Below, one piece after another: positions 3,621-58,731 of a DNA stretch of 64,000 nucleotides. The notes beneath the pieces are model-generated. The model was not told where the DNA came from. It did not search any database and was given only the letters and a program-made list of their open reading frames with translations. The stretch is taken from assembly GCA_002306085.1 (NCBI GenBank), contig DBRS01000017.1, positions 1,482 through 65,481 of the forward strand, in the 5' to 3' direction. Each line of letters begins with the position of its first letter. The stretch's first letter is position 1. The translations under genes and the position numbers were made by a program. The DNA comes from Candidatus Moranbacteria bacterium UBA1362 (GTDB lineage: Bacteria > Patescibacteriota > Minisyncoccia > Moranbacterales > GWC2-37-73).

Positions 3621-4772
3621 CTATTTGATTATTCCTCCCCCCAGCACCTCGCTGTCGTCAGAATAGAACACAGCGGACTGGCCGGGAGTCACCGCTCTCT
3701 GAGGCTCCAAAAATTCCACTTTCAGGATTGTTTTCGATTTTTGCCCTTTTTCCGCCTGTTTTTTTATTATAGCACGAACCGCCCGATTCTTATAGCGGAT
3801 TTTCACATTGGCTTCAAGAGGAAATTTCGGCTCGCCCGAGATCCAATTTTCGGCTTCAACAAGCATCGTTTTTCTGCAGAGGCCGGGATCGTTGGGGTTA
3901 TTGGTGACAATAAGCCGGTTGCTTTTAAAATCGCGCTCCACAACATAATAAGGCCCGTTTCCGCCTATATTTATGCCCTTCCTCTGCCCGATTGTGTATA
4001 GCTCAAGTCCCTCATGGGTTCCTATTTTCGCTCCTGCTCCGGACTTCAGGGTGCTTTGTGCGCCGGCACAAAGTGAACTGTTCGCAAAAACTATATCGCC
4101 GGGCGAAAGATTGACATTGCGCCTGATAAATCCATCCGGGCTCTCGCCTCTTATGAAACAAATATTCTGCGAATCATCCCTGTCAAAAACCGGAAGGCTC
4201 ATTTTTTTGGCGATCTTTCTCGTTTCGGGTTTCTTGAGTGACTCCAGCGGAAACAGAATTTTAGCCAGCTGTTTTTCAGTAAGATTATACAAGAAATATG
4301 TCTGATCTTTTTGCGCGTCACTTGGCATATACAAGCGATATTTTCCGTTCTTTTTTTCTATTCTGGCATAATGTCCGGTAGCAACAAAATCGGCTTTCAT
4401 CTCAAGCATTTTTTCAAAAAGCACGTGAAATTTCACTTTTTTGTTGCATGTCACACAGGGATTCGGGGTTCTGCCGGCCTTAATTTCATCGATAAAATAT
4501 TTCACAACGTGTTTTTTAAATTCTCTCGAGACATCCACCGCATGAAACTCGATGCCCAACGTTTTTGCCACATTTTTCGCATCTTTTTCGGATTCCGCGA
4601 AGTAGTCATCGCTTTCTCCGGACGTTTCTTTTGGCTCTTTCCAGAAACGCAAAAACACTCCAACGACATCGTATCCCTGTTTCTTGAGCAGCGCTGCCGC
4701 GGTGGAGGAATCAACTCCCGCTGACATGCCGACAATTACTTTTTTTCTTTTATTCTTTTTATTCCTTTGCAT
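3621..4772 (-). CDS. mnmA: tRNA-specific 2-thiouridylase MnmA
   Basis: PP-loop SGGVDSS motif (VGMSAGVDSS), conserved Cys, full-length MnmA architecture. Confidence 0.88.
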   Translation of the reverse strand: MQRNKKNKRKKVIVGMSAGVDSSTAAALLKKQGYDVVGVFLRFWKEPKETSGESDDYFAESEKDAKNVAKTLGIEFHAVDVSREFKKHVVKYFIDEIKAGRTPNPCVTCNKKVKFHVLFEKMLEMKADFVATGHYARIEKKNGKYRLYMPSDAQKDQTYFLYNLTEKQLAKILFPLESLKKPETRKIAKKMSLPVFDRDDSQNICFIRGESPDGFIRRNVNLSPGDIVFANSSLCAGAQSTLKSGAGAKIGTHEGLELYTIGQRKGINIGGNGPYYVVERDFKSNRLIVTNNPNDPGLCRKTMLVEAENWISGEPKFPLEANVKIRYKNRAVRAIIKKQAEKGQKSKTILKVEFLEPQRAVTPGQSAVFYSDDSEVLGGGIIK

Positions 4773-4894: not shown

Positions 4895-6808
4895 TTATTC
4901 TTGTTTTTTATTATTTTTTGAATTATCTATCAGCTTCCGAACTTCGTCAAGATTTATTTGAGGTCTTTTTCTTTGCGATCTGAATTTTTTCGGAGCAATA
5001 TATTTCATCTGTGAAAGTTTTAGCGATTTTTCATCGGGCGCATAGAGTTTGTGCTCCACATGTTTTTCGAAGGGTTTTTGAGATGAAAAATCTTTTTGGA
5101 AATCTCCCTCTTTTTCCCGATTCTCTTTCGCGCGTTTACTAGTTTTTTCTCCGCGATCCGCGCTTTTCCCAGATCCCGCTTCTTCTCTTTCGTGCTGGGC
5201 GCGCTTCTCCTGGGCAAGTTTCTCTTTCGCCATCATGCGCTGGTAGTCTTTTAGGCACTCTCTGCAGAAAGTCGGCCTCTTTCCGTCCGGCTGGAAAGGA
5301 ACCTGAATATTATTGCCGCACATGTCGCATATTGCGTCGAACATCGGCCTTGAAATTGCAGGTTCAGCATCACTTTCCTTTGGAGCCTTCACAGAATCTT
5401 TTCCGGCAGTTTCTTTTTTTACCTCCGCCTCGGGTTTTGTCCCTTGTTGCGCCTGTTGTTTTTGCCGCGGCTCGCTGACTGTTTGTTCCTGCTGCAGCTT
5501 GTTGACCGTTTGGAATCCTCCCGAAGGCATGATTCCAGACCAGCGTGCAATCTTATCTTCCACTTCAGCTTTTGTCGACGCGTAGCGTTCGCGAGAGATC
5601 TGTATAACTTTCTGTTCATTTTCCAGCGTGTCTTCTATAAATATGGGGGGCAGAGTCACCGCCGAAAAAGCGTCTCCCGCGATTCCATCAATCATCAATT
5701 TAAGATAGATGTTGTATTTTGCGAGATTGACAATATCATTTTCCGTAAAGATAGGCGCGAATTCTTTTTCCAAAAATTCAGCGTCAACCGCGCCGACCCT
5801 GAATGAGATTATTGTTCCGGCATTGCCGAAAATCGCGTCGCGCACCTTTTCATCGATTTGAGATATATACTGATTAGCCAAAATCAAATTAAGTCTGTAT
5901 TTTCTGGCCTCCGAGAGAATATTGGCAAAAGATTCCGTCGCGAAGTTCTGAAACTCATCGACATAAAGGTAGAAATCATTGCGTTCTTCTTCGGGAATAT
6001 CAACACGCGCCATCGCGGCAAGCTGAATTTTTGTTATCATCATCGCGCCCAAAAGAGCGCTGTTATCTTCGCCAATTCTTCCTTTGGAAAGATTCAGGAT
6101 GAGAATTTTTTTGGAATCCATGACTTCCCTGATATCAAAAGACGACTGCGTCTGGCCGACAATGTTTCTAATAAGCGAACTTGATAAAAATTGCCCGACT
6201 TTGTTTTGAATAGGTGAAATAACTTCCTGCAGAACTCTGTCGTTCCATTTTGTGAATTCCTCGTTCCAAAACTGTTTCACAACGGGATCCGTGACTTTGT
6301 CCACGACTTTCTCGCGATATCTCTTGTCCACAAGAATTCTTGTCACGCCCAAAAGCGTGCTGCCCGGATATTCCAAAAGCGCCAAAATTGCATTGCGCAA
6401 AATATATTCCAAACGGGGACCCCACGAATCCGCCCATATTTTTTTGAACACACCGATAAGACCGGACGCAACTAGATGTCGGTATTCCGGATTGACAGCT
6501 TCCATGACATTGAAAGCTATCGGAAACTTTTGGTCCGCTGGATTGAGATATATAACATCCTTGATGCGCTCGGACGGAATCGCTTTTATGAGCTTCTCGG
6601 CGGTGTCTCCGTGAGGATCAATATAGCAAACTCCGTTCCCTCTTCGAATATCCTGCACGGCCATATTCTCAAGCAGATTTGTCTTTCCCATTCCGGTCTT
6701 TCCGATGATGTAAATGTGTCTGCGCCTGTCATCGGTTTTTATTCCGAAGACCCGTTCCTGGTTTCTGAAATTTGTTTTTGCAAAAAAAGTTATATCATTA
6801 TTCATCAC
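4895..6808 (-). CDS. VirD4/TraG/HerA-like P-loop ATPase (FtsK-HerA superfamily) with C-terminal C4 zinc ribbon and Lys-rich tail
   Basis: Walker A GKTGMGKT, Walker B YLYVDEFQNF, C-terminal CDMCGN...FCRECL. Confidence 0.6.
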   Translation of the reverse strand: MMNNDITFFAKTNFRNQERVFGIKTDDRRRHIYIIGKTGMGKTNLLENMAVQDIRRGNGVCYIDPHGDTAEKLIKAIPSERIKDVIYLNPADQKFPIAFNVMEAVNPEYRHLVASGLIGVFKKIWADSWGPRLEYILRNAILALLEYPGSTLLGVTRILVDKRYREKVVDKVTDPVVKQFWNEEFTKWNDRVLQEVISPIQNKVGQFLSSSLIRNIVGQTQSSFDIREVMDSKKILILNLSKGRIGEDNSALLGAMMITKIQLAAMARVDIPEEERNDFYLYVDEFQNFATESFANILSEARKYRLNLILANQYISQIDEKVRDAIFGNAGTIISFRVGAVDAEFLEKEFAPIFTENDIVNLAKYNIYLKLMIDGIAGDAFSAVTLPPIFIEDTLENEQKVIQISRERYASTKAEVEDKIARWSGIMPSGGFQTVNKLQQEQTVSEPRQKQQAQQGTKPEAEVKKETAGKDSVKAPKESDAEPAISRPMFDAICDMCGNNIQVPFQPDGKRPTFCRECLKDYQRMMAKEKLAQEKRAQHEREEAGSGKSADRGEKTSKRAKENREKEGDFQKDFSSQKPFEKHVEHKLYAPDEKSLKLSQMKYIAPKKFRSQRKRPQINLDEVRKLIDNSKNNKKQE

Positions 6809-8233: not shown

Positions 8234-9328
8234 CTATTTTTTGATTGAATATGTGCCGCTTTTCGATTTAGTAAAGTAGTTGTTAAGATTGATCACTATG
8301 GTTGATTTCTTCACTTGTCTTACCTTCAGGACTTTTCCTATAATCTCATCTCTTTTGAGTGGTTTTTTTGCCGCCTTGATGATTTCCTCGATAACGTCTT
8401 TTACCGTACCTTTTTTGTACCCCCACTCTGCCAAAGCATATATGCCTCTTCCCACCAGCACAAAATTGTCATCTTTAATAAGCTCATTATGCACGGTCTG
8501 GGGATGCGTTTTCTTTTTGTTAAGGCTGTGCCTGTCGATTTCTTCCGCGATTTCCCGGAAATGCAACGGTTTCTTTGTTTCCTTGAGGATAAGATAGGCC
8601 TTTTCCCTTGTTCCTTTGGGAGAAACTTCTTTCCACTTTGCAATTCCCCATTTTCCAAAAGAATTTCTGGCCAATTCTTCCGATACATCCAGATAATGCG
8701 AAAGATTTTCTTTGCCGAAACCGGAGAAGGAATAATTTTCAACAATGGACTTGAATAATTCATCAAGAAGCAAAGTGCTTTTCTTTTTTTCAAGCATCTC
8801 AACAGCGGCATCCTTTATTGATTTCCATTTTTTGACATTGAATTCCGCGGTTGAATATGACGCCTTAAGCACGCCGGGAATTTCCTGATAATTTATCCCG
8901 TCCACGCATTCCAGAAAAAAACTTATGGCAGCTTCTTCGCTTTTATCACTTTTTCCCAACTCAGAAGCGAGTTTTTTCTTCTCTATTATACCACTGTTTG
9001 ACTGTATAGCCAATGTGATTTTTGTTTTAGCCTGAACAAGATATGGATTATCTTTTTTTTCACAGATTTTTCTCACGACTTCATGTACGATCTGCCTCAC
9101 TCGTTCCCGGGTAATGTTATATTTGTTTCCGATTTCTTCCAATGTCAAAGCGTTGCCGCCGTGAACCCCATAGCGGATAAAAATGATTTCCTGGGAACGT
9201 TTTGACAAACCGGAAATAATCTCTTTTAGCGCATCAGAAAAAAAGAAGTTTTCGGATATATTTTTTTGTGGCTGATTTGAGCTGGATTCCATATTTTTAA
9301 ACACAAAAATAAATATTAGACACTTCAT
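8234..9328 (-). CDS. Sigma-70 region-4 HTH fused to two HARE-HTH (RNAP delta-like) winged-helix repeats; putative transcription regulator
   Basis: region 4.2-like LTLEEIGNKYNITRERVRQIVHEVVRKI; C-terminal repeats ...FREIAEEI...VHNELIKDDNFVLVGRGIYALAEWGY. Confidence 0.55.
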   Translation of the reverse strand: MKCLIFIFVFKNMESSSNQPQKNISENFFFSDALKEIISGLSKRSQEIIFIRYGVHGGNALTLEEIGNKYNITRERVRQIVHEVVRKICEKKDNPYLVQAKTKITLAIQSNSGIIEKKKLASELGKSDKSEEAAISFFLECVDGINYQEIPGVLKASYSTAEFNVKKWKSIKDAAVEMLEKKKSTLLLDELFKSIVENYSFSGFGKENLSHYLDVSEELARNSFGKWGIAKWKEVSPKGTREKAYLILKETKKPLHFREIAEEIDRHSLNKKKTHPQTVHNELIKDDNFVLVGRGIYALAEWGYKKGTVKDVIEEIIKAAKKPLKRDEIIGKVLKVRQVKKSTIVINLNNYFTKSKSGTYSIKK

Positions 9329-9481
9329 ATTATATTACCATATATTAAATTTTTGTCAACCCCAAAACAGCTTTTTGAAACTTTTGATTTTTCTCCTGTT
9401 TTTAAGCTCTCGAAAGCCCAAAAATCGACCGCAACTCGCATACAGAAAGCACACATAATAAATGCACACCGGAAAGCAAAA

Positions 9482-9506
9482 AATTACGTAATTAATTACG
9501 TAATTT
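9482..9506. promoter_or_regulatory. Tandem palindromic TTACGTAA operator-like sites (2 copies, 12-bp spacing) upstream of the sigma4/HARE-HTH gene
   Basis: AATTACGTAATTAATTACGTAATTT; same motif recurs at 29469-29502, 46741-46788, 47960-47993. Confidence 0.5.
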
Positions 9507-22060: not shown

Positions 22061-22208
22061 AGGCTTTCCATATTATAAATACGACCTATTTTTACTGCCG
22101 CATATACTATTATGTATGGCAGCGGATGCATTATCTTATTTGCCATTAACTTTTTTAACAACAACTTGGGTCAAAGGATTCTTGGTAAGGAGTATGGTAA
22201 GTAATATA

Positions 22209-22610
22209 TTACTTACTTATACAGCCCTCTTCCCATGTTCTTAGGCATTTTTGTTTTTCTTCGCACCAAACGTAGCCTGCAGAACCTATGCACCCGTGTT
22301 CATCCCGATCGTTTCCGACCACTTGTTGCGGACCGTTGTTCACTGCATCCTGTTTGCCGTTTTCCGGACATGGCGCAAATTCACAACTCGGTCCTGTCCT
22401 GCCGACGCTAGATCCGTCAGGACAAATTTTCGCTTCTTCCGTACAAGCCCTTTGATGATCATCACCTGCTGGTTGTTGGCCATTTATCTTATTCTGCCAA
22501 TAAAATACTCCTCCTATTGCAACAGCAACTAATAAAATTATTCCTACTGCAACTTCGCTTGCGATTTTTTTGTTCATATTTTTGCAAAATTTATCGGCCG
22601 TAAACTGCAC
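22209..22610 (-). CDS. Small Cys-rich secreted/anchored protein (likely true start at second Met, ~22577)
   Basis: signal-anchor MNKKIASEVAVGIILLVAVAIGG then an 8-Cys domain. Confidence 0.5.
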   Translation of the reverse strand: MQFTADKFCKNMNKKIASEVAVGIILLVAVAIGGVFYWQNKINGQQPAGDDHQRACTEEAKICPDGSSVGRTGPSCEFAPCPENGKQDAVNNGPQQVVGNDRDEHGCIGSAGYVWCEEKQKCLRTWEEGCISK

Positions 22611-27862: not shown

Positions 27863-29464
27863 TTAGCTCACGTTCAATCCCGTTGGATTCGCCGGCGCGG
27901 CCATGTCAAGATCGGCATAATAACCCATATTGGGACAAATACTCGGATCCTGCAGATGAAAATTGCTTTGAGCGGCATCAACAAATATCGATTGCGGATC
28001 GCTTCTAATTATTATCAGCGAATCGGGATCGAAGCCGAAAATGTTCCGAGCTTGAGTATAGGTATAATGTTCCACTCCTGACGGCATATAACGGGAAGCA
28101 AATTGAAAATCCGAATGAGGAGAAATGAAGCAGTTGTTGTTTGATGTCACCTGCTGCAACAAAGATTCCGCCACGTTTTCGGCGTCGGTATAAACTTCGC
28201 TTTTTGAAATATACGCGGGAGTGTCCCAATTGGCCCCCTGAACCCTCGAATTCAAACCACAGAAAATATTGTTGCGGATCGTATGTCCGGTGCCAGTCCA
28301 CAAAGACATCAAAAGATCAAGCCCGACGAAAGTATTATACTCAACAGTGGCGTTTTGTCCGGCAATAGCAACCAACCTGGGATCATTCATGATACCGTCA
28401 CTGTTGTTTCCCATTGCCCTAAACCCCCTGTCAACATTGTAGCTGAGATTGCGCACAAAATGCATATTTGAAGCTACAATAGTGCCAAGGCTTCCGCAAT
28501 CATGAATAATATTGTTTTCTATAAGAACAGGTCCGGCGGTGCAATTCTTAAAAAAGAACGCTTGAGGAACTTCATATATTTCATTATTCTTTATTTCTAT
28601 ATATCCCGTTCCTCCGCCTTCAAATCCCAAATACGATTGCCTTGAAAGCATCGTTACTGCTCCAAAATGCTGCGCATCAATAACGCCGTCCCATTGGTTC
28701 GGTTGCTCCCAATCATATATTCCATGTAACTTGTTGCCGTGTATGAAAATATTATACGGGCCTCCCCAGTCTCCTCTGTCGATCCGGACAATTCCCGGAT
28801 TATCTCCGCCGTCACAGGCAATGTCATGAATATTGTTATTTTTTATAGTTATATCATGTGTTTGAGCACTTTGTGTTCCTCCTTCAACATTCACAATGCC
28901 ACCCATTATTTCAAATCCCTCGATAACCCAATATGCCTTGAGGCCCACCGTGACAGCTCTCTTGAAAACTTCGCCATTGGGAGGAAATCCGGGATCAAAC
29001 CTTTGATCCGTTAAATCCAAAATTGGGGTCTCACCCGGATAGTTTCTGACAGTAATCGGATTGTTTTCCGCACCGCTGGCTATGGAATACGCGGGATGAT
29101 TCGACGCCCAGCCGCTAAAGTCTTTTATGCTTATAAATCCATAAGCGTCCTTGAAGCAATATCCATCTGTTAGTTTCTGCCCTTCCGGACAACTGGTTGC
29201 GCCAGCGCTGCTGGCGTCTCTTGCAATGCCTCTCACCATCGCATTGTCAAAATCATACGTGCCGCCACGCGCATATATCGTGTCCCCCGCTTGCGCCCTT
29301 GTGAGCGCCGGTAAAAATGTCTTGAATGGTTCCACTATGGTTCCGGATGCGACATCGTTTCCGTCAGGTGCGACATAATATTCCGCCGCTTCGGAATTTT
29401 TCGTAAAGCAAAAAAAACTGAGAAAAAGCACTGATAAAATTAATTTTCGAGCATGTCTTTTCAT
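27863..29464 (-). CDS. Secreted right-handed parallel beta-helix protein 1 (pectate-lyase-like fold); start moved to second in-frame ATG (track start 29494)
   Basis: signal peptide MKRHARKLILSVLFLSFFCF...SEA; PbH1-type repeats (NNNIHD, NNIIHD); TTACGTAA repeats between the two ATGs. Confidence 0.7.
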   Translation of the reverse strand: MKRHARKLILSVLFLSFFCFTKNSEAAEYYVAPDGNDVASGTIVEPFKTFLPALTRAQAGDTIYARGGTYDFDNAMVRGIARDASSAGATSCPEGQKLTDGYCFKDAYGFISIKDFSGWASNHPAYSIASGAENNPITVRNYPGETPILDLTDQRFDPGFPPNGEVFKRAVTVGLKAYWVIEGFEIMGGIVNVEGGTQSAQTHDITIKNNNIHDIACDGGDNPGIVRIDRGDWGGPYNIFIHGNKLHGIYDWEQPNQWDGVIDAQHFGAVTMLSRQSYLGFEGGGTGYIEIKNNEIYEVPQAFFFKNCTAGPVLIENNIIHDCGSLGTIVASNMHFVRNLSYNVDRGFRAMGNNSDGIMNDPRLVAIAGQNATVEYNTFVGLDLLMSLWTGTGHTIRNNIFCGLNSRVQGANWDTPAYISKSEVYTDAENVAESLLQQVTSNNNCFISPHSDFQFASRYMPSGVEHYTYTQARNIFGFDPDSLIIIRSDPQSIFVDAAQSNFHLQDPSICPNMGYYADLDMAAPANPTGLNVS

Positions 29465-29468
29465 ATTT

Positions 29469-29502
29469 TTTACGTAAGGTTTTACGTAAAACATTACGTA
29501 CT
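29469..29502. promoter_or_regulatory. Three tandem TTACGTA(A/C) sites (12-bp spacing) at or overlapping the translation start of beta-helix protein 1
   Basis: TTTTTACGTAAGGTTTTACGTAAAACATTACGTACTT; 24-mer nearly identical to 47970-47993. Confidence 0.55.
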
Positions 29503-29569: not shown

Positions 29570-31309
29570 TCAGCTCACGCTTAATCCCTGCGGTGAAGCC
29601 GGAGCGATCTCATCTCCCGAAGTCGTTGCGCCTTCGATCCAATCAGGGTCTCCCAAAGCGTTTTGCAAAATTGAAACATCAGCAAGATTCAGGACTCCTT
29701 CAACCCAATCGTTATCATCTGGGTTTGTCGCTCCGATGTAAGAAGGGATCGTAACGTCATCAAGATACGGATGTCCGCTTCCGATTCCGCCGTTTGAAAT
29801 GGTGGCCGAACCCGACACCGCATGCTCTTCACGAGTGATATAGCGGCTTGATCCGGAAGTGCCGCTCATCAAATTGTCGATTCCCTCAGAGCTTGCTTTG
29901 CGATAATTGCCGGAAATTTGAGGATAATTTGTCTCCCAATTGGAAATGAGCCCTATATCCCTGTGTCCGGGCGCGACCAAGTCCGCATTCCAAACGTCAT
30001 TGTTATTGTCAGGACGATAAAGATAGTTGTTTTTAAAATGGAAATCGTTCAGATTAAGAACCGTCGAATCGTCATAATAAGAAGCGCAACCGGAATCACC
30101 GGTGTTACACATATAGTCCCTAAAGCCCACCTGCCTGTTCCGATCACTGTCTACAAAGTTATCGATAATATTGTTATAGGTCCAGTCTTTGCGAAATGCC
30201 ACATCTCCCGCAGGATCCCAAAAATAATACTTGTTGCTTGTCGTGACGTATGAAAGAGAATAGTGAAGCCTCTTTACGTAATTATTATATATGCATGAAT
30301 AGAGCGGAGCGTAATCTCCGGTATACCCCACGCTTATATGGCTGTCCGGAATTATATTGTTGTAAATTTGCGCCAGATCCTGATTGGTCTCTATCATTTC
30401 CGACCCCAAAACAAGATTATGATGGATCTTGTCGCCGAAATGCTTGCGTGATTCCGTGATTGTTCCATTCACGGCGTGCGGGATTATTGTCTGACCAGCC
30501 TTGTGTTTGAAAGCTCTCGTCGACCTGTCGGTTGTTTCTTTGAAAAGGTTGTATCTGACAATATTCCTTGCAATCAAAGAATTTTCATTATAAGCCCCGT
30601 CAGCCAAAACATTTGTTTTCGAAATGAGCTCATATGAAACCGCATAGTCGCTCAAAAAAACTATCTGCGCGCAATTTGTTCCCGCGGTATCGGACGCTCC
30701 ATTGGAATCAAAAAAGTTATATTCAATCACCGAATCCATCGGGACATTGGCATAGATTCCGGCAGGATTATCTCCGCCAGTACCGGCATAATTGTCGTGT
30801 ATGTAACAATACCTCACAGTAAATGGACCGCCGGAAAGAGCGATTCCGGCGTTAGTCCCTCCGGATATCTCCAGACGCTCAAATCTCCAATATTTGACAC
30901 ATCCCGGTCCGGGACATTGGTTTTGATATGCTCTTAGTCCGATGACGCACCAGTCTCCGGAGCCCTGAATACGCGCCCATTCGCCGGGATAGGATTGTAT
31001 GGAGCTATAATCATCGGCGGTCCCGTCAGCTTTTATTTCAAACGTCTCGCGCCCGTCTCCCGAACTCGCATAAGTTCCGCCGCGAAGGTATATGTCATCC
31101 CCTCCTGCCATCGCGTCAAGGGCGGCCTGCACGTTCACGTATGCATCGCCGTCGCTTCCGCCGCAATTTCTGGCAGCGGTTGAATAGTTGCCCGACGTGC
31201 AATTTGCCGCAAGCGTCTGGTCGACATAAATATTCGCCGCTTCGGATTTTCCGGCAAACGCAAAAACACTCAGCAACGCGAAAAAAAATAATATCTTTTT
31301 TTGGTTCAT
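29570..31309 (-). CDS. Secreted right-handed parallel beta-helix protein 2 (paralogue of 27863-29464)
   Basis: signal peptide MNQKKILFFFALLSVFAFAGKSEA; beta-helix repeats; shared N- and C-terminal motifs with paralogue. Confidence 0.7.
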   Translation of the reverse strand: MNQKKILFFFALLSVFAFAGKSEAANIYVDQTLAANCTSGNYSTAARNCGGSDGDAYVNVQAALDAMAGGDDIYLRGGTYASSGDGRETFEIKADGTADDYSSIQSYPGEWARIQGSGDWCVIGLRAYQNQCPGPGCVKYWRFERLEISGGTNAGIALSGGPFTVRYCYIHDNYAGTGGDNPAGIYANVPMDSVIEYNFFDSNGASDTAGTNCAQIVFLSDYAVSYELISKTNVLADGAYNENSLIARNIVRYNLFKETTDRSTRAFKHKAGQTIIPHAVNGTITESRKHFGDKIHHNLVLGSEMIETNQDLAQIYNNIIPDSHISVGYTGDYAPLYSCIYNNYVKRLHYSLSYVTTSNKYYFWDPAGDVAFRKDWTYNNIIDNFVDSDRNRQVGFRDYMCNTGDSGCASYYDDSTVLNLNDFHFKNNYLYRPDNNNDVWNADLVAPGHRDIGLISNWETNYPQISGNYRKASSEGIDNLMSGTSGSSRYITREEHAVSGSATISNGGIGSGHPYLDDVTIPSYIGATNPDDNDWVEGVLNLADVSILQNALGDPDWIEGATTSGDEIAPASPQGLSVS

Positions 31310-35587: not shown

Positions 35588-36016
35588 AAATCATCAAGAC
35601 AACCTGTAAGCCGGATTCTGTCATCGTGCCTTGCGCGAACAAAGCACGGCGGACAATCATTTATCTTGATCTACCGTTGCCGGCAGATTCCAGCGGCACT
35701 CCCCGATAAATCGGGGCACGGCCTTGCACCACGCAGGGTTTGCCATCTTTCATTGTCGCCAATGAAGAACTTCCGTAGCAAAAGTATTTCGCTAATCAGC
35801 TGATAGAGCGAAAACTTGCACACCGAAAAACTTTTCACCTTTGCCCGACGCATGGCGTCGGATAGTATAGTCTCTGTGGCACTTTCCCTTCTGCGATGTC
35901 GCCATCGCAGCGGTGGGCATTACCCACTGCGCATAATCCCGACAAAACGAGAATGGTGTCCGGACTTTCCTCTCCACCCAAAGCGGAGCGATTGCCCGGT
36001 TGCCTTGATGATTTAT
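35588..36016 (-). ncRNA. rnpB: RNase P RNA (bacterial type)
   Basis: minus strand GGUGGAGAGGAAAGUCCGGACACC (P4 5' half), ...ACAGAAUCCGGCUUACAGG (P4 3' half); 17-bp P1 helix AAAUCAUCAAGGCAACC / GGUUGUCUUGAUGAUUU; GC-rich island in AT-rich DNA covered only by short conflicting ORFs. Confidence 0.8.
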
Positions 36017-45547: not shown

Positions 45548-46621
45548 CTACACGTTCCTCTTCTCGAGATAGTCCACAAGTCCGAAAAAAAATTCTTTCG
45601 CATTCGGCAAAATTACCGCTTTTTCCATGGCGCGCCTGCCTTTTTTGAAATTTTTGCGAGCCGTTTCTAAGGCATAGTCCAATGAACCGGTTTCTTTCAG
45701 GATGTTCCGGAACGCTTCTATTTCGTTTCGCCCGATATTTTTCTTTCCGAGAATGTCGCCCAGAATTTTTTTCTGCCGCCTGTTGCCCCTCTCGCGCGCC
45801 TTAACAACAAGAAGAGACTGTTTGCCTTCCTCGATGTCGGAAGCATTTGATTTTCCGATCTTTTTGGCATCGCCGAACACCCCGAGAATGTCGTCCTGAA
45901 TCTGAAACGCTATCCCGAGCGGAACGGCATAGGCGCTGAATGCTTTGAACACTTTTCTGTTATTGCATCCGGCAAGTTTCGCTCCCATATGCAACGGACC
46001 TTCAAAGGTATAGCGCGCTGTCTTGTTGCGATACATCGAAAGCACCTGTTCTTCTGTAACGTTTTTTTCATAGGCGATCGCAATATCCTGCGACTGTCCG
46101 ATGATTGTCGTGGCGACAACCGACTGAAGATTCGCAAGAACTTTCGCCGCAATATCTCCGCCAAAACCGGCTTCGGCAATGATTCTGTTGGCCATGGCAT
46201 AGAGCATGTCCCCGCCGATGATTGCCATCGAGTTTCCGAAATGCTCTGCATCCTTTCCCGCGATCTTTTCATCCGCAAAAAAGACATTGAGCGTCTTTTG
46301 CCCGTGCCGGGATTTTCCGCGATCGATTATGTCATCGTGCGCAAGCAGGAAAAGATGCACAAGCTCGATTGCGGCTGCCGCTTTCAGAATTTTCTTCTTT
46401 TCCCTGCCTCCCACCGCAAAATACGCCCAGCACAAAAGCGCGCCGCGAATCCTCTTTCCTCCGGAAAGCGCAATTTTCTTGGCCTGCACGAGCGCGTCGG
46501 CCATAATCGGATCTTCCTTGAGAGTCTTCGCTATTTCCTTGCTAAACTGACGTTCAAGTTCCCCGCTTATGGCGCCTTTCAGGTTTTTTAGTTCTTGCTT
46601 GAAATCCATAATAAAAAACAA
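45548..46621 (-). CDS. trans-Polyprenyl diphosphate synthase (IspA/GGPPS family)
   Basis: FARM LLAHDDIID and SARM QIQDDILG aspartate-rich motifs. Confidence 0.85.
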   Translation of the reverse strand: MFFIMDFKQELKNLKGAISGELERQFSKEIAKTLKEDPIMADALVQAKKIALSGGKRIRGALLCWAYFAVGGREKKKILKAAAAIELVHLFLLAHDDIIDRGKSRHGQKTLNVFFADEKIAGKDAEHFGNSMAIIGGDMLYAMANRIIAEAGFGGDIAAKVLANLQSVVATTIIGQSQDIAIAYEKNVTEEQVLSMYRNKTARYTFEGPLHMGAKLAGCNNRKVFKAFSAYAVPLGIAFQIQDDILGVFGDAKKIGKSNASDIEEGKQSLLVVKARERGNRRQKKILGDILGKKNIGRNEIEAFRNILKETGSLDYALETARKNFKKGRRAMEKAVILPNAKEFFFGLVDYLEKRNV

Positions 46622-46707
46622 AAATGATTTATTTTTGTCTTTTAAGCCTACTATTTCCGGCCCAAAAAAGCAAGCGCGCCAACATCACATCAGTGCGCGT
46701 AAAATCA

Positions 46708-46736
46708 CAAAAAAGCGCTAATCGGCGCTTTTTTCA
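46708..46736. terminator. Bidirectional hairpin terminator downstream of the nuclease gene
   Basis: AAAAAAGCGC-taatcg-GCGCTTTTTT. Confidence 0.5.
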
Positions 46737-46740
46737 AACT

Positions 46741-46788
46741 TATTACGTATTTTATTACGTAAAATTTTACATATTTAAATATGTAAAA
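46741..46788. promoter_or_regulatory. Array of four TTACGTA-type half-sites, ending in a perfect 24-bp palindrome
   Basis: TATTACGTATTTTATTACGTAAAA + TTTTACATATTTAAATATGTAAAA (46765-46788, perfect palindrome). Confidence 0.5.
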
Positions 46789-46808
46789 AGATTTGAAAAT
46801 TAGCAAAA

Positions 46809-47645
46809 TTATTTTTCCACTTTGCTGGCGGCCTGGCGATAGTTGCAGTAGTCGCAATCGGGATGAGCTTCGGGCATCTCGCCGTCCAGACACTTTTTAA
46901 TTTCAAAAATCGTGCCCTCAATCCAAGAATCATCTCCCGTGTACGGGATAATTTTGATATCAAATTCCAGTTTTCCGTCAAAAGCCTCTTTGTCTGTAAC
47001 TCCGTTGCAATAAACAAAATATCCGGTCTTTGAAACCGCAAAATCATTTTTCCGAAACAGCCACTGATAAATTTCCATCTGCCTTTTATATTCAATCTGC
47101 CAGTCGGCATCTAAATTTACTTCCTCCTTTTTGGAAGTCGACTTATAGTCAACAATAATCAGTTCGCCTTTGGGATTGACCCACACGTCATCCACTCCGC
47201 CTGTCAAAAGCAAATTGGTTTCCTTATGCAGATATTGGATGCCTCCGCGCAATGAATCCCGCCATTCATCCATTCTCGGATCCTGAAACGGCACAGCGTC
47301 AATGCCATATTTTTCCATCAGCGGATGAGCTTTTTCTTTGGCGCGATGCAGATCAAATTCTTTTTTAAGCAAAGCATCAACAGCTGAATTAAGATTAAAA
47401 GGAAATCCCGGCGGACGTCCTATCCCTAGCCGCCTGTCCAGATAAAAACATCTTGGGCAATTCAAAAACAAACTGATTTTCGAACGGGACAACTTGAACG
47501 CTTCCGCCTTTTCAGGATCGTATACATTCCGCGTTCTGTTTGCCTTGTAGTACACAGACATAGGATATTTTTTATTATTTAATGGATTTTTAAAGTCATG
47601 TAATCCTTTAATAGAAAAAGGTTCTTGATTTGTAATAACTATCAT
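46809..47645 (-). CDS. PD-(D/E)XK nuclease, RecB/Cas4 family, with CxxC...CxxC cluster
   Basis: motifs GGVDDV, ELIIVDYK, QMEIYQ (QxxxY), Cys pairs CPRC and CDYC. Confidence 0.6.
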   Translation of the reverse strand: MIVITNQEPFSIKGLHDFKNPLNNKKYPMSVYYKANRTRNVYDPEKAEAFKLSRSKISLFLNCPRCFYLDRRLGIGRPPGFPFNLNSAVDALLKKEFDLHRAKEKAHPLMEKYGIDAVPFQDPRMDEWRDSLRGGIQYLHKETNLLLTGGVDDVWVNPKGELIIVDYKSTSKKEEVNLDADWQIEYKRQMEIYQWLFRKNDFAVSKTGYFVYCNGVTDKEAFDGKLEFDIKIIPYTGDDSWIEGTIFEIKKCLDGEMPEAHPDCDYCNYRQAASKVEK

Positions 47646-47764
47646 TTTAGTTTTCGGCCAATATTTATCTAGCTACGCTCTTTCCCACTCAGCATTTCTT
47701 CTCGATTTTCTATTTCCTAAATATCTTACCGCCACAAACATTATATTTTTCGCTCGGATTTAAG

Positions 47765-47947
47765 TTATTTTCTAGAATAAAAATCTCTGATTATAATACC
47801 GCCTTTTATTTTTTTGACCACGACTTTCTGTTTTTCTTTCCAGCCGAAAGCGCGGATAATTTCGATTGGCAATGTCAGGCCGATGGAATGATTGCCCAAT
47901 TTTGTAAGTTTTCTTACATTGGATTCTTCCCTTTTTCTTGTTGACAT
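47765..47947 (-). CDS. AbrB/MazE/SpoVT-family small DNA-binding protein (60 aa)
   Basis: swapped-hairpin pattern KLTKLGNHSIGLTLPIEIIRAFGW. Confidence 0.5.
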   Translation of the reverse strand: MSTRKREESNVRKLTKLGNHSIGLTLPIEIIRAFGWKEKQKVVVKKIKGGIIIRDFYSRK

Positions 47948-47959
47948 ATGTTTGTTCTA

Positions 47960-47993
47960 AGTATGTAAAATATTACGTAAAATATTACGTACT
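47960..47993. promoter_or_regulatory. Tandem TTACGTA(A/C) sites 14-45 nt upstream of the AbrB-like gene start
   Basis: TATGTAAAATATTACGTAAAATATTACGTACTT. Confidence 0.55.
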
Positions 47994-48080
47994 TTGATAT
48001 ATTTCATTTTACGCCCAAAGCTTTTTTCAAGCAAACTGATGCTTTTTTTATCTTAAGACGGCTACAGAATTTTGGAAATT

Positions 48081-48113
48081 TTAAAAACCCTCTTTCAAAC
48101 AAAGAGGGTTTTG
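48081..48113. terminator. Bidirectional rho-independent terminator immediately 3' of tRNA-Glu
   Basis: AAAAACCCTCTTT-caaac-AAAGAGGGTTTTG. Confidence 0.7.
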
Positions 48114-48120
48114 AGAACTG

Positions 48121-48195
48121 TACCGCGTATGGGATTCGAACCCATGATTTCTTGGATGAGAACCAAGTGTCCTAGACCAACTAGACGAACGCGGC
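48121..48195 (-). tRNA. tRNA-Glu (anticodon CUC)
   Basis: cloverleaf: acceptor GCCGCGU/ACGCGGU, 3-bp D stem, anticodon stem CUUGG/CCAAG, loop UUCUCAU, T-arm AUGGG-UUCGAAU-CCCAU, discriminator A. Confidence 0.75.
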
Positions 48196-53114: not shown

Positions 53115-53549
53115 CTAATATATTCCCAGTTTTCCAAGTTGCTCTGCCACTTCATCAGTGTTCTCTTCCGCTTTCGCTCTGTACGATTTCCATTTGTCTT
53201 CCGCCCAGACCTCCAGCCTGTTATAAAGTCCCGCGACGACAACAGAGCGGTCAAGCCCCGCATATTCTTTGAGATATTCCGGAAGCAAAATTCTTCCCTG
53301 GCTGTCCACGTCGCTGTCGATCGCCCCCGCAAGCATCAATCTCACAAAGCTTCTTGTTGAAGATTCACCCATCGGAAGCGTTCCAAGTTTTTCAGCAAGT
53401 TCTTTCCATGTTTTCAGCGGATACACAAACAGACATTTGTCCAATCCCCTTGTGATGACAACTTTGCCTCCAAGCTCTTTTCTGAACTTTGAAGGAAGCG
53501 CGAGGCGCTTTTTCGGATCCAAACTGTGCTGATATTCTCCGATAAACAT
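53115..53549 (-). CDS. mraZ: Transcriptional regulator MraZ
   Basis: tandem SpoVT/AbrB-like MraZ repeats (DPKKRLALP). Confidence 0.88.
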   Translation of the reverse strand: MFIGEYQHSLDPKKRLALPSKFRKELGGKVVITRGLDKCLFVYPLKTWKELAEKLGTLPMGESSTRSFVRLMLAGAIDSDVDSQGRILLPEYLKEYAGLDRSVVVAGLYNRLEVWAEDKWKSYRAKAEENTDEVAEQLGKLGIY

Positions 53550-53662
53550 TTGCCTTGAATTTTAGCTGATAAAAATGCGGACGATTTCTAAAAAAATAGG
53601 AGACGTAAAATTACGGCTACCCCCTATAGCATAATTCAGATATCATTCATTATTGTTATACT

Positions 53663-53720
53663 TGTCAATGCCCCACTTTCTTCCACTTTATGGCATTACA
53701 ATGTAATTCTACCCCACCCT
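53663..53720 (-). promoter_or_regulatory. Putative mraZ promoter (-35 TTGACA) with MraZ-box-like AAAGTGG direct repeats immediately upstream
   Basis: minus strand GGGTGGGG...AAAGTGGAAGAAAGTGGGGCATTGACA (10-bp phasing). Confidence 0.45.
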
Positions 53721-53917: not shown

Positions 53918-53951
53918 TGTTATATAAATTGTTATATAACAAGTTATATAA
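53918..53951. repeat. Three direct repeats of GTTATATAA(C) with 12-13 bp periodicity
   Basis: GTTATATAAattGTTATATAAcaaGTTATATAAca inside a 454-bp non-coding gap. Confidence 0.6.
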
Positions 53952-58637: not shown

Positions 58638-58731
58638 ATTTTTTGTAAAGATGAATCAAGCTTCTTTATTACATAATTTTACATCATCAAATATCGCTTT
58701 GCAAATATGAAAATTTGATTGTATAATTGGA

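Follow-up and report, generated by a model that had tools for sequence, protein, structure and literature searches.

Which factor reads the short palindromes that recur at a fixed phase between the genes of a Candidatus Moranbacteria genome (Patescibacteria, also called the candidate phyla radiation, CPR)? The window analyzed here is the whole 64-kb stretch of that genome, in which nearly all genes lie on the minus strand. An initial annotation had described tandem copies of the 8-bp box TTACGTAA as phased protein-binding sites of a small regulon, with two proteins of the window as candidate regulators. In the present analysis, the arrays do behave as such sites, and we propose that they are the operators of one of these two proteins, a 60-amino acid (aa) protein of the AbrB/MazE fold encoded at 47765–47947 on the minus strand. 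We assign this reading, which was drawn from sequence comparisons, a probability of roughly 0.78.

The exact box TTACGTAA occurs seven times in the window, whereas dinucleotide-preserving shuffles of the 64 kb predict 0.47 ± 0.63 copies, and none of 100 shuffles reached seven. When one mismatch was allowed, no excess was observed (18 copies against 19.5 expected), which indicates that exact or near-exact boxes account for the signal. Moreover, nine of the 11 copies of the TACGTA hexamer fall within four clusters, and these form four arrays of two to four boxes whose positions, as read from the sequence, are all non-coding. The only coding copy of the TTACGTAA type is a lone box at 30274. To define the phase, near-consensus box pairs were scored at each spacing from 8 to 24 bp. 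Pairs were found at 12 bp and at its multiple, 24 bp, and the sole other match was a weak 10-bp pair at 58669; thus, the spacing is exactly 12 bp and not the 12–13 bp first reported. That weak pair, consisting of one 7/8 box and a partial second copy, had been listed as a fifth site and was rejected as off-pattern, while the other four sites were retained. Sites 2 and 4 indeed have a nearly identical 24-mer in common (22/24 positions). Furthermore, a scan of the window with the generic pattern xTAxxTAx-N4-xTAxxTAx gave 12 matches, compared with 0.3 in simulated sequence, and added two arrays, at 22197–22216 and 53920–53951. Collectively, these results show that the TTACGTAA arrays are real.

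To identify the genes that accompany such arrays, we scanned one genome per species for TTACGTAA-N4-TTACGTAA. At least 120 loci were obtained, and clustering of the genes that flank the pattern revealed three recurrent neighbors. About one-third of the loci among the matches listed belong to CPR genomes, although CPR genomes make up a small share of the collection, and about 42 of the 50 arrays in these CPR loci are intergenic. Among the matches listed, six CPR loci carry a 53–60-aa homologue of the AbrB-like protein beside the array (39–66% identity), and in five of the six the array ends 4–12 bp before the ATG of the homologue. Because these loci were found by the DNA pattern alone, they provide independent evidence for the pairing of protein and array.

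Matches outside CPR were set aside as other systems. In Bacteroidota (L004, L016, L041, L052, L072, L074, L080, L089, L112, L117, and others), the TTACGTAA-N4-TTACGTAA pattern stands directly before a conserved gene of about 316 aa, whose product, judged by eye, is a MarR-type helix-turn-helix domain fused to a GNAT acetyltransferase. These arrays probably belong to a distinct autoregulated system in which the same DNA words recur. In L013, L026, L029, L035, L049, L058, L067, L104, and L106, mostly Firmicutes, the pattern adjoins LacI-family genes with spacers such as ACGT, TCGT, and CCGG, and in Halobacillus (L049) two copies flank one LacI-family gene. Also set aside was a match in Acinetobacter fadD that encodes an LRKDLRK repeat.

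The pairing was also observed from the side of the protein. In 80 metagenome loci encoding homologues, of which 65 remained after dereplication, the pattern xTAxxTAx-N4-xTAxxTAx lies at most 60 nucleotides (nt) upstream of 45 of the 65 homologues, compared with 14 of 607 other genes of the same loci, and several of the 14 control matches are themselves further genuine arrays. In the 45 positive loci, the arrays are placed 0–32 nt before the ATG, which points to autoregulation by position only. The frequency of the motif inside coding regions had been suggested as a check; with a stricter box definition, the 521 kb of related CPR loci contain 52 arrays, of which 33 accompany the regulator's own gene and 19 lie in other places; coding DNA contains none. 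Collectively, these observations strongly support one of the two regulators named initially, the AbrB-like protein.

Additionally, the sequence of the boxes follows the sequence of the protein. Proteins of the majority type, KLTK(I/L/V)G(G/K)KSIGL, pair with TTACGTAA or GTAAGTAA/TTACTTAC boxes, SRIGN(K/R) proteins with ATACCTAT/ATAGGTAT, VGxTSLAV proteins with ATAxxTAT, and TKSGNG proteins with TTCAGTAA or TTCAGGAA. When protein identity was compared with box similarity in a Mantel test, r was 0.305, a value reached by none of 2000 permutations. In some lineages, the boxes are direct, non-palindromic repeats, namely two copies of TTCAGTAA or three of TTCAGGAA (L137 and L149). Since direct repeats cannot form hairpins, they favor recognition of DNA by a protein over RNA structure.

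This last point bears on the best surviving alternative, in which the arrays would act as RNA or single-stranded DNA hairpins, either terminators or structures of the 5′ untranslated region that affect stability or translation, and no dedicated protein would be involved. Each box is self-complementary, so neighboring boxes can pair. For site 1, located 53 nt past the stop of pheT, the predicted hairpin has an energy of −11.4 kcal/mol (z = −4.3), with a 12-bp stem and a 4-nt loop followed by U6, and pheT has no other obvious terminator; site 3 folds well too (z = −4.4). Moreover, the A-run, palindrome, and T-run of site 1 are kept in a sister species, and a conventional GC-rich terminator stands in the same place in more distant orthologous loci. 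In contrast, sites 2 and 4 fold no better than shuffled sequence (z = −1.8 and −1.5), and the stems contain only two G–C pairs per box. The direct repeats upstream of the regulator gene in L137 and L149 are unpairable, and no Rfam family matches the arrays; the Rfam search of the window returned only RNase P and tRNA-Glu. Hairpins also leave unexplained the three-box arrays, the strict 12-bp period, the link to one protein family, and the covariation of protein and box. We therefore consider this explanation unlikely for the arrays as a group. At site 1 itself, the U6 and the position behind pheT fit an intrinsic terminator, whereas the low G–C content of the stem does not and a terminator scan did not call it; the array may also serve as the pheT terminator.

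The proposed regulator is the only member of its family within the window and is 100% identical to P0001 from Candidatus Moranbacteria. In an AlphaFold2 monomer model (mean predicted local distance difference test score, pLDDT, 72.7), the chain adopts a beta-beta-alpha-beta-beta arrangement with strands at residues 13–17, 21–25, 42–47, and 50–55 and a helix at residues 28–34. The top 10 Foldseek matches in the PDB are MazE, the N-terminal domain of AbrB, SpoVT, and AbrB-type VapB, with MazE structures best and probabilities up to 0.96. The domain PF04014 is precomputed for most homologues and is marked as weak for the window protein itself. Arg12 and Lys13 are invariant across 47 sequences, which is consistent with, though not proof of, contact with DNA. 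Family members are 53–60 aa long, and the chain ends 3–5 residues past the last strand, without a C-terminal toxin-binding tail. The absence of this tail, together with the absence of a constant downstream partner, indicates that the protein is not a classical antitoxin. The family retains about 60% identity from Saccharibacteria to Moranbacteria, comprises 447 clusters at 50% identity (E ≤ 1e-3), and was not found among 2.9 million viral contigs.

The position of the arrays suggests how such a protein might act. For site 1, site 2, and the 22197 array, the last base of a −10-like element (TAAAAT, TGgTATAAG, and TATAAG, respectively, the latter two on the minus strand) is also the first base of the first box, and the same overlap occurs in L176, L191, and L214. 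In many homologous loci, a TAnnnT hexamer ends 4–6 nt before the first box. As these hexamers abut or closely precede the arrays, the boxes would cover the transcription start, from about −1 to +35. For the regulator's own gene, site 4 reads GTACGTAA-tatt-TTACGTAA-tatt-TTACATAC on the minus strand and extends from 13 nt after the putative TAAAAT −10 element to 14 bp before the ATG. Protein bound there would cover the transcription start and the early transcribed DNA and thus shut the promoter. Such a placement fits a repressor that prevents open-complex formation or promoter escape, and it would result in negative autoregulation; site 4 is most likely the autoregulatory operator of the AbrB-like gene.

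In molecular terms, the protein might form a swapped-hairpin dimer, with one dimer bound to each 8-bp box, and the 12-bp spacing would allow two to four dimers to bind side by side and cooperate. Known systems provide models for this arrangement, as the mazEF operator holds three consecutive MazE-dimer sites within 47 bp, with each dimer in one major groove (PMC4333400), and the promoter of mraZ has four phased boxes to which MraZ itself binds (PMC12957436). Besides its own promoter, the AbrB-like protein would act at the beta-helix gene, at the polyprenyl synthase leader, and behind pheT, and probably at the 22197 array upstream of secA. Across CPR, the unit of promoter, operator, and regulator is found in variable neighborhoods, often in one operon with restriction–modification or other defense genes, and the box sequence has drifted together with the protein.

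Table 1. Coordinates of the arrays, the genes beside them, and other features of the window.
Feature	Position	Strand	Description
Site 1	9484–9503		2 boxes, perfect 20-bp palindrome TTACGTAATTAATTACGTAA, A-run and T-run on its sides
Site 2	29470–29501		3 boxes; ATG (29464) of the secreted beta-helix protein gene 6 bp downstream
Site 3	46743–46786		4 boxes, TTACGTAT / TTACGTAA / TTACATAT / ATATGTAA
Site 4	47961–47992		3 boxes, GTATGTAA / TTACGTAA / TTACGTAC
Extra array	22197–22216		2 boxes at 12 bp, perfect 20-bp palindrome GTAAGTAATATATTACTTAC: GTAAGTAA-TATA-TTACTTAC
Extra array	53920–53951		three TTATATAA palindromes (GTTATATAAC-type), exactly 12-bp period
AbrB/MazE/SpoVT-fold regulator gene, 60 aa	47765–47947	−	proposed cognate regulator; follows tRNA-Glu
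Putative promoter of the regulator gene	48006–48034	−	−35 TTGCTT (48034–48029), 17-nt spacer, −10 TAAAAT (48011–48006)
Cas4-like PD-(D/E)XK nuclease gene	46809–47645	−	PF12705, cas4 below threshold; variable "cargo" slot
Polyprenyl synthase gene	45548–46609	−	PF00348; candidate target of site 3
Secreted beta-helix protein gene	27863–29464	−	Pfam; candidate target of site 2
Sigma-70 region 4 + HARE-HTH gene	8234–9292	−	likely start 9292, matching 352-aa P0121; possible distal target of site 1
Class A bacterial RNase P RNA	35591–36007	−	RF00010, 181 bits

The surroundings of the arrays are as follows (Table 1). Site 1 lies between pheT and the gene for a protein with sigma-70 region 4 and a HARE-HTH domain (sigma4/HARE-HTH), about 125 nt upstream of the conserved TTGACA/TATAAT promoter of the latter. 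For site 3, the array is located between the stop of the nuclease gene (46809) and a GC-rich hairpin with a T-run (46709–46734); the polyprenyl synthase gene starts (ATG, 46609) about 130 nt downstream of the array, and an extended −10-like TGcTAATTT (46805–46797, minus strand) is found 10 nt upstream of the array. The nuclease gene begins 120 nt downstream of the regulator gene, and this cargo contains no methyltransferase. The 22197 array is placed at the stop of a 133-aa open reading frame, 316 nt upstream of the secA ATG (21881), with a hairpin and T-run about 130 nt further downstream. Its box variant is common upstream of homologues in other CPR lineages and occurs in L139, L166, L199, and L203. 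The 53920 array is located between the stop of a GT1 glycosyltransferase gene (54004) and mraZ; it follows the same grammar as the TTACGTAA arrays, but with TA as its core. Separately, the leader of about 100 nt between site 3 and the polyprenyl synthase start (46620–46700, minus strand; 190–290 in L214) is kept in the sister species. Within this leader, a GC-rich hairpin precedes TTGCTTTTTT; the leader has no Rfam match at the gathering threshold and could be an attenuator or an unrecognized leader element.

To place the arrays in an evolutionary context, we compared the window with its closest relative, a sister species with 70–73% protein identity (Logan runs SRR29093022-24), and with more distant Moranbacteria. 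In the sister species, site 1 with its A-run and T-run is kept exactly, while the spacer has otherwise diverged (L217 and L218). A four-box array occupies the place equivalent to site 3 upstream of a 73%-identical polyprenyl synthase, although the upstream neighbor differs (L214). At the regulator locus (L219), the order murF, tRNA-Glu, AbrB-like gene is kept, and the promoter of the regulator gene (TTGCCC-17-TAAAAT) and its three boxes are conserved, whereas an EcoRI-like methyltransferase gene replaces the nuclease gene downstream. The expectation that the motif would be conserved at orthologous genes therefore holds for sites 1, 3, and 4 in the sister species and fails in more distant Moranbacteria. 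This pattern indicates a regulon that is real at the genus level and young at the phylum level. The slot from tRNA-Glu(CTC) to the polyprenyl synthase gene (46709–48195; L215, L216, and L219) is variable among Moranbacteria, and distant relatives have an unrelated gene on the opposite strand there; it resembles a hot spot for accessory genes next to a tRNA gene.

The same comparison bears on the second regulator named initially, the sigma4/HARE-HTH protein, and more generally on the idea that another DNA-binding protein (this one, MraZ, or a further factor) reads the boxes, with the AbrB-like gene merely as its commonest target. An array does lie upstream of the sigma4/HARE-HTH gene, a core CPR gene with 7810 homologues whose product could serve many lineages, and in L125 and L128 the AbrB-like gene lacks an array while arrays occur elsewhere in the locus. 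However, four Moranbacteria with orthologues of 55–61% identity, in which the gene order is unchanged and the TTGACA/TATAAT promoter strongly conserved, have no strict array there or anywhere in 84 kb, and site 1 itself stands well away from that promoter. The sigma4/HARE-HTH protein was thus rejected both as the regulator and as a conserved target; since the sister species retains site 1, the sigma4/HARE-HTH gene survives as a possible distal target. The box sequence, moreover, follows the sequence of the AbrB-like protein, which a third-party binder would not predict. We judge this explanation improbable, slightly more so than the hairpins. As separate observations, the promoter of the sigma4/HARE-HTH gene (gGGTTGACAAAAatTTAATATatGgTAATATAAT, 9330–9358, minus strand; L210–L213 and L217) is strikingly conserved despite protein identities of 55–70%, and the gene order pheS-pheT-sigma4/HARE-DUF8128-TrwB-like ATPase is conserved in Moranbacteria.

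For MraZ, a genuine member is encoded in the window at 53115–53549 ahead of rsmH (TIGR00242, 146 bits). GTGG/GTGGG boxes about 10–11 nt apart (ataaaGTGGaagaaaGTGGGgc) are located at 53660–53720 (minus strand), just past a promoter-like TTGACG...TAGAAT pair, and these putative sites are the expected MraZ autoregulatory boxes. MraZ was rejected as the binder because it has these boxes of its own upstream of mraZ and no TTACGTAA array there.

The last alternative, in which the arrays would not be transcriptional operators but the ends or relics of a mobile cassette, or else iteron-like sites for replication or partition, would account for sites 3 and 4 flanking the AbrB–nuclease pair beside tRNA-Glu in a slot that holds different genes in relatives, for the highly variable neighbors of the family, and for two identical array-bearing segments 1.07 kb apart in L170, but it is very improbable given that the family is absent from the viral contigs, that the regulator gene, promoter, and array stay in the sister species while only the downstream cargo changes, that site 3 stays with the polyprenyl synthase gene despite a different upstream neighbor, that the arrays keep a fixed short distance to start codons and adjoin −10-like hexamers, and that no recombinase or replication gene is nearby.

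Several observations weigh against the AbrB-like protein as the reader of the arrays. First, 20 of the 65 homologues fail the simple upstream-array test, and some homologues, such as P0003 (L125) and P0008 (L128), have no good array at their own gene. Second, shared descent can inflate the covariation of protein and box. Third, the fold assignment is distant by sequence, as the family profile matches AbrB chains in the PDB weakly (E = 0.6–0.7), the best NCBIfam match is doc_partner at 19 bits, below the cut-off of 55.9, and the Foldseek E values are no better than 0.12, the query being short. Fourth, besides the four Moranbacteria whose sigma4/HARE-HTH loci are free of arrays, two further Moranbacteria with a polyprenyl synthase of 61–62% identity have neither arrays nor an AbrB-like gene at the tRNA-Glu slot. 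Fifth, neither site 1, with its long distance to the conserved promoter, nor site 3, with a terminator-like hairpin behind it, has the placement of a classical operator relative to the neighboring annotated genes. Finally, the proposed stoichiometry, one dimer per box, is borrowed from the MazE and MraZ sites as an analogy, the promoters are all assigned from the DNA alone, and the direction of regulation follows from position, such that cooperative repression would be expected but activation also has to be considered.

The proposed system resembles several known ones without matching any of them. Like E. coli MazE, the CPR protein would be a small swapped-hairpin DNA-binding domain whose own promoter would be bound through several consecutive short sites, and in the mazEF operator one site contains a 6-bp palindrome (PMC4333400). 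Unlike mazEF, the CPR arrays repeat an 8-bp unit strictly every 12 bp, and further putative operators stand at unrelated genes; unlike MazE and the AbrB-type VapB antitoxins, the CPR protein has no C-terminal toxin-binding tail and no conserved downstream toxin. MraZ also belongs to the AbrB superfamily and represses its own operon through three to four equally spaced boxes just downstream of the promoter (PMC12957436). In contrast, MraZ joins two AbrB-like domains in one chain of about 145 aa, assembles into rings of 8–12 subunits, recognizes direct GTG(T/G) boxes, and heads the dcw cluster, whereas the CPR protein is a single domain of 60 aa with mostly palindromic boxes. AbrB, Abh, and SpoVT of B. 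subtilis have the same N-terminal fold and repress at several promoters. However, AbrB is a tetramer with a C-terminal multimerization domain and no sharp consensus, while the CPR protein corresponds to the DNA-binding domain alone and has an operator that is phased and sharply defined.

Two further groups are comparable in logic and different in fold. Ribbon-helix-helix repressors (MetJ, omega, CopG, and Arc) read short head-to-tail boxes with a beta-sheet, and neighboring dimers cooperate; their fold is different, and their boxes have other periods, with MetJ boxes repeating every 8 bp and omega boxes every 7 bp. The controller (C) proteins of restriction–modification (RM) systems are small, autoregulated proteins whose genes precede RM genes, often in the same operon, and whose own promoters have repeated palindromic operators; the CPR proteins are likewise small and would be autoregulated through such arrays, and their genes are often followed by RM genes. 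However, C proteins have an Xre-type helix-turn-helix and two C-boxes, whereas the CPR family has the AbrB fold and two to four boxes at 12 bp. Moreover, the CPR family, unlike C proteins, has further putative operators at housekeeping-type genes, and its cargo in the window is a Cas4-like nuclease without a methyltransferase.

The likeness to C proteins extends to the neighborhoods of the family. The genes on both sides of the regulator are highly variable; in 53 loci, those downstream belong to 40 different clusters. At least 13 of the 33 scanned same-strand downstream genes encode RM components (N6_Mtase, N6_N4_Mtase, EcoRI-type and C5 methyltransferases, Bsp6I endonuclease, and ResIII), often after gaps of 3–40 nt, and others encode RadC, MazG-like proteins, and, in one case, Fic. 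Extra arrays in the family loci precede genes for an HD protein, a DNA methyltransferase, a staphylococcal-type nuclease, and an epimerase, and further ones precede genes for a Schlafen/AlbA_2 protein, ScpB, a PaaX-like protein, and a transposase. In L170, two identical array segments (ccttaaataTTACGTAACCCATTACGTACcaatctctaattcgc) at 3984–4003 and 5055–5074, 1071 bp apart, each lie upstream of a small gene, which suggests a duplicated promoter–operator module.

Based on these neighborhoods, we tentatively raise a broader idea, for which the odds are clearly below even. The 58–60-aa AbrB-like CPR proteins might form a portable promoter–operator–regulator unit that gates whichever RM or defense gene is plugged in behind it, as C proteins do, and in some lineages, including this Moranbacteria genus, copies of the operator might have spread to host genes. 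Candidate places in this window are the gene for the secreted beta-helix protein, the leaders of the polyprenyl synthase gene and of secA, and the 3′ end of pheT. If this is true, the spread operators would tie cell-envelope functions to the state of the defense module.

AbrB/MazE-type autoregulators with phased boxes are already known. In the searchable literature, we found no description of this AbrB-like CPR family or of its operator, and likewise none of CPR regulons or of AbrB-type proteins as RM controllers. Almost nothing is known about the control of transcription in CPR/Patescibacteria, whose genomes are tiny, with few recognizable regulators and few cultured representatives. Against this background, the analysis provides a testable pairing of a compact protein family with an operator grammar of 8-bp boxes, invariant TA steps, a 12-bp period, and an abutting −10 element. 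With the natural specificity variants of the family, one could decipher the recognition code of the AbrB fold, for which sequence specificity has hitherto been hard to define, and the frequent pairing with RM genes suggests a route to the control of RM systems that does not involve a helix-turn-helix protein. Provided that binding is confirmed, regulons can be predicted from the operator across thousands of uncultured genomes.

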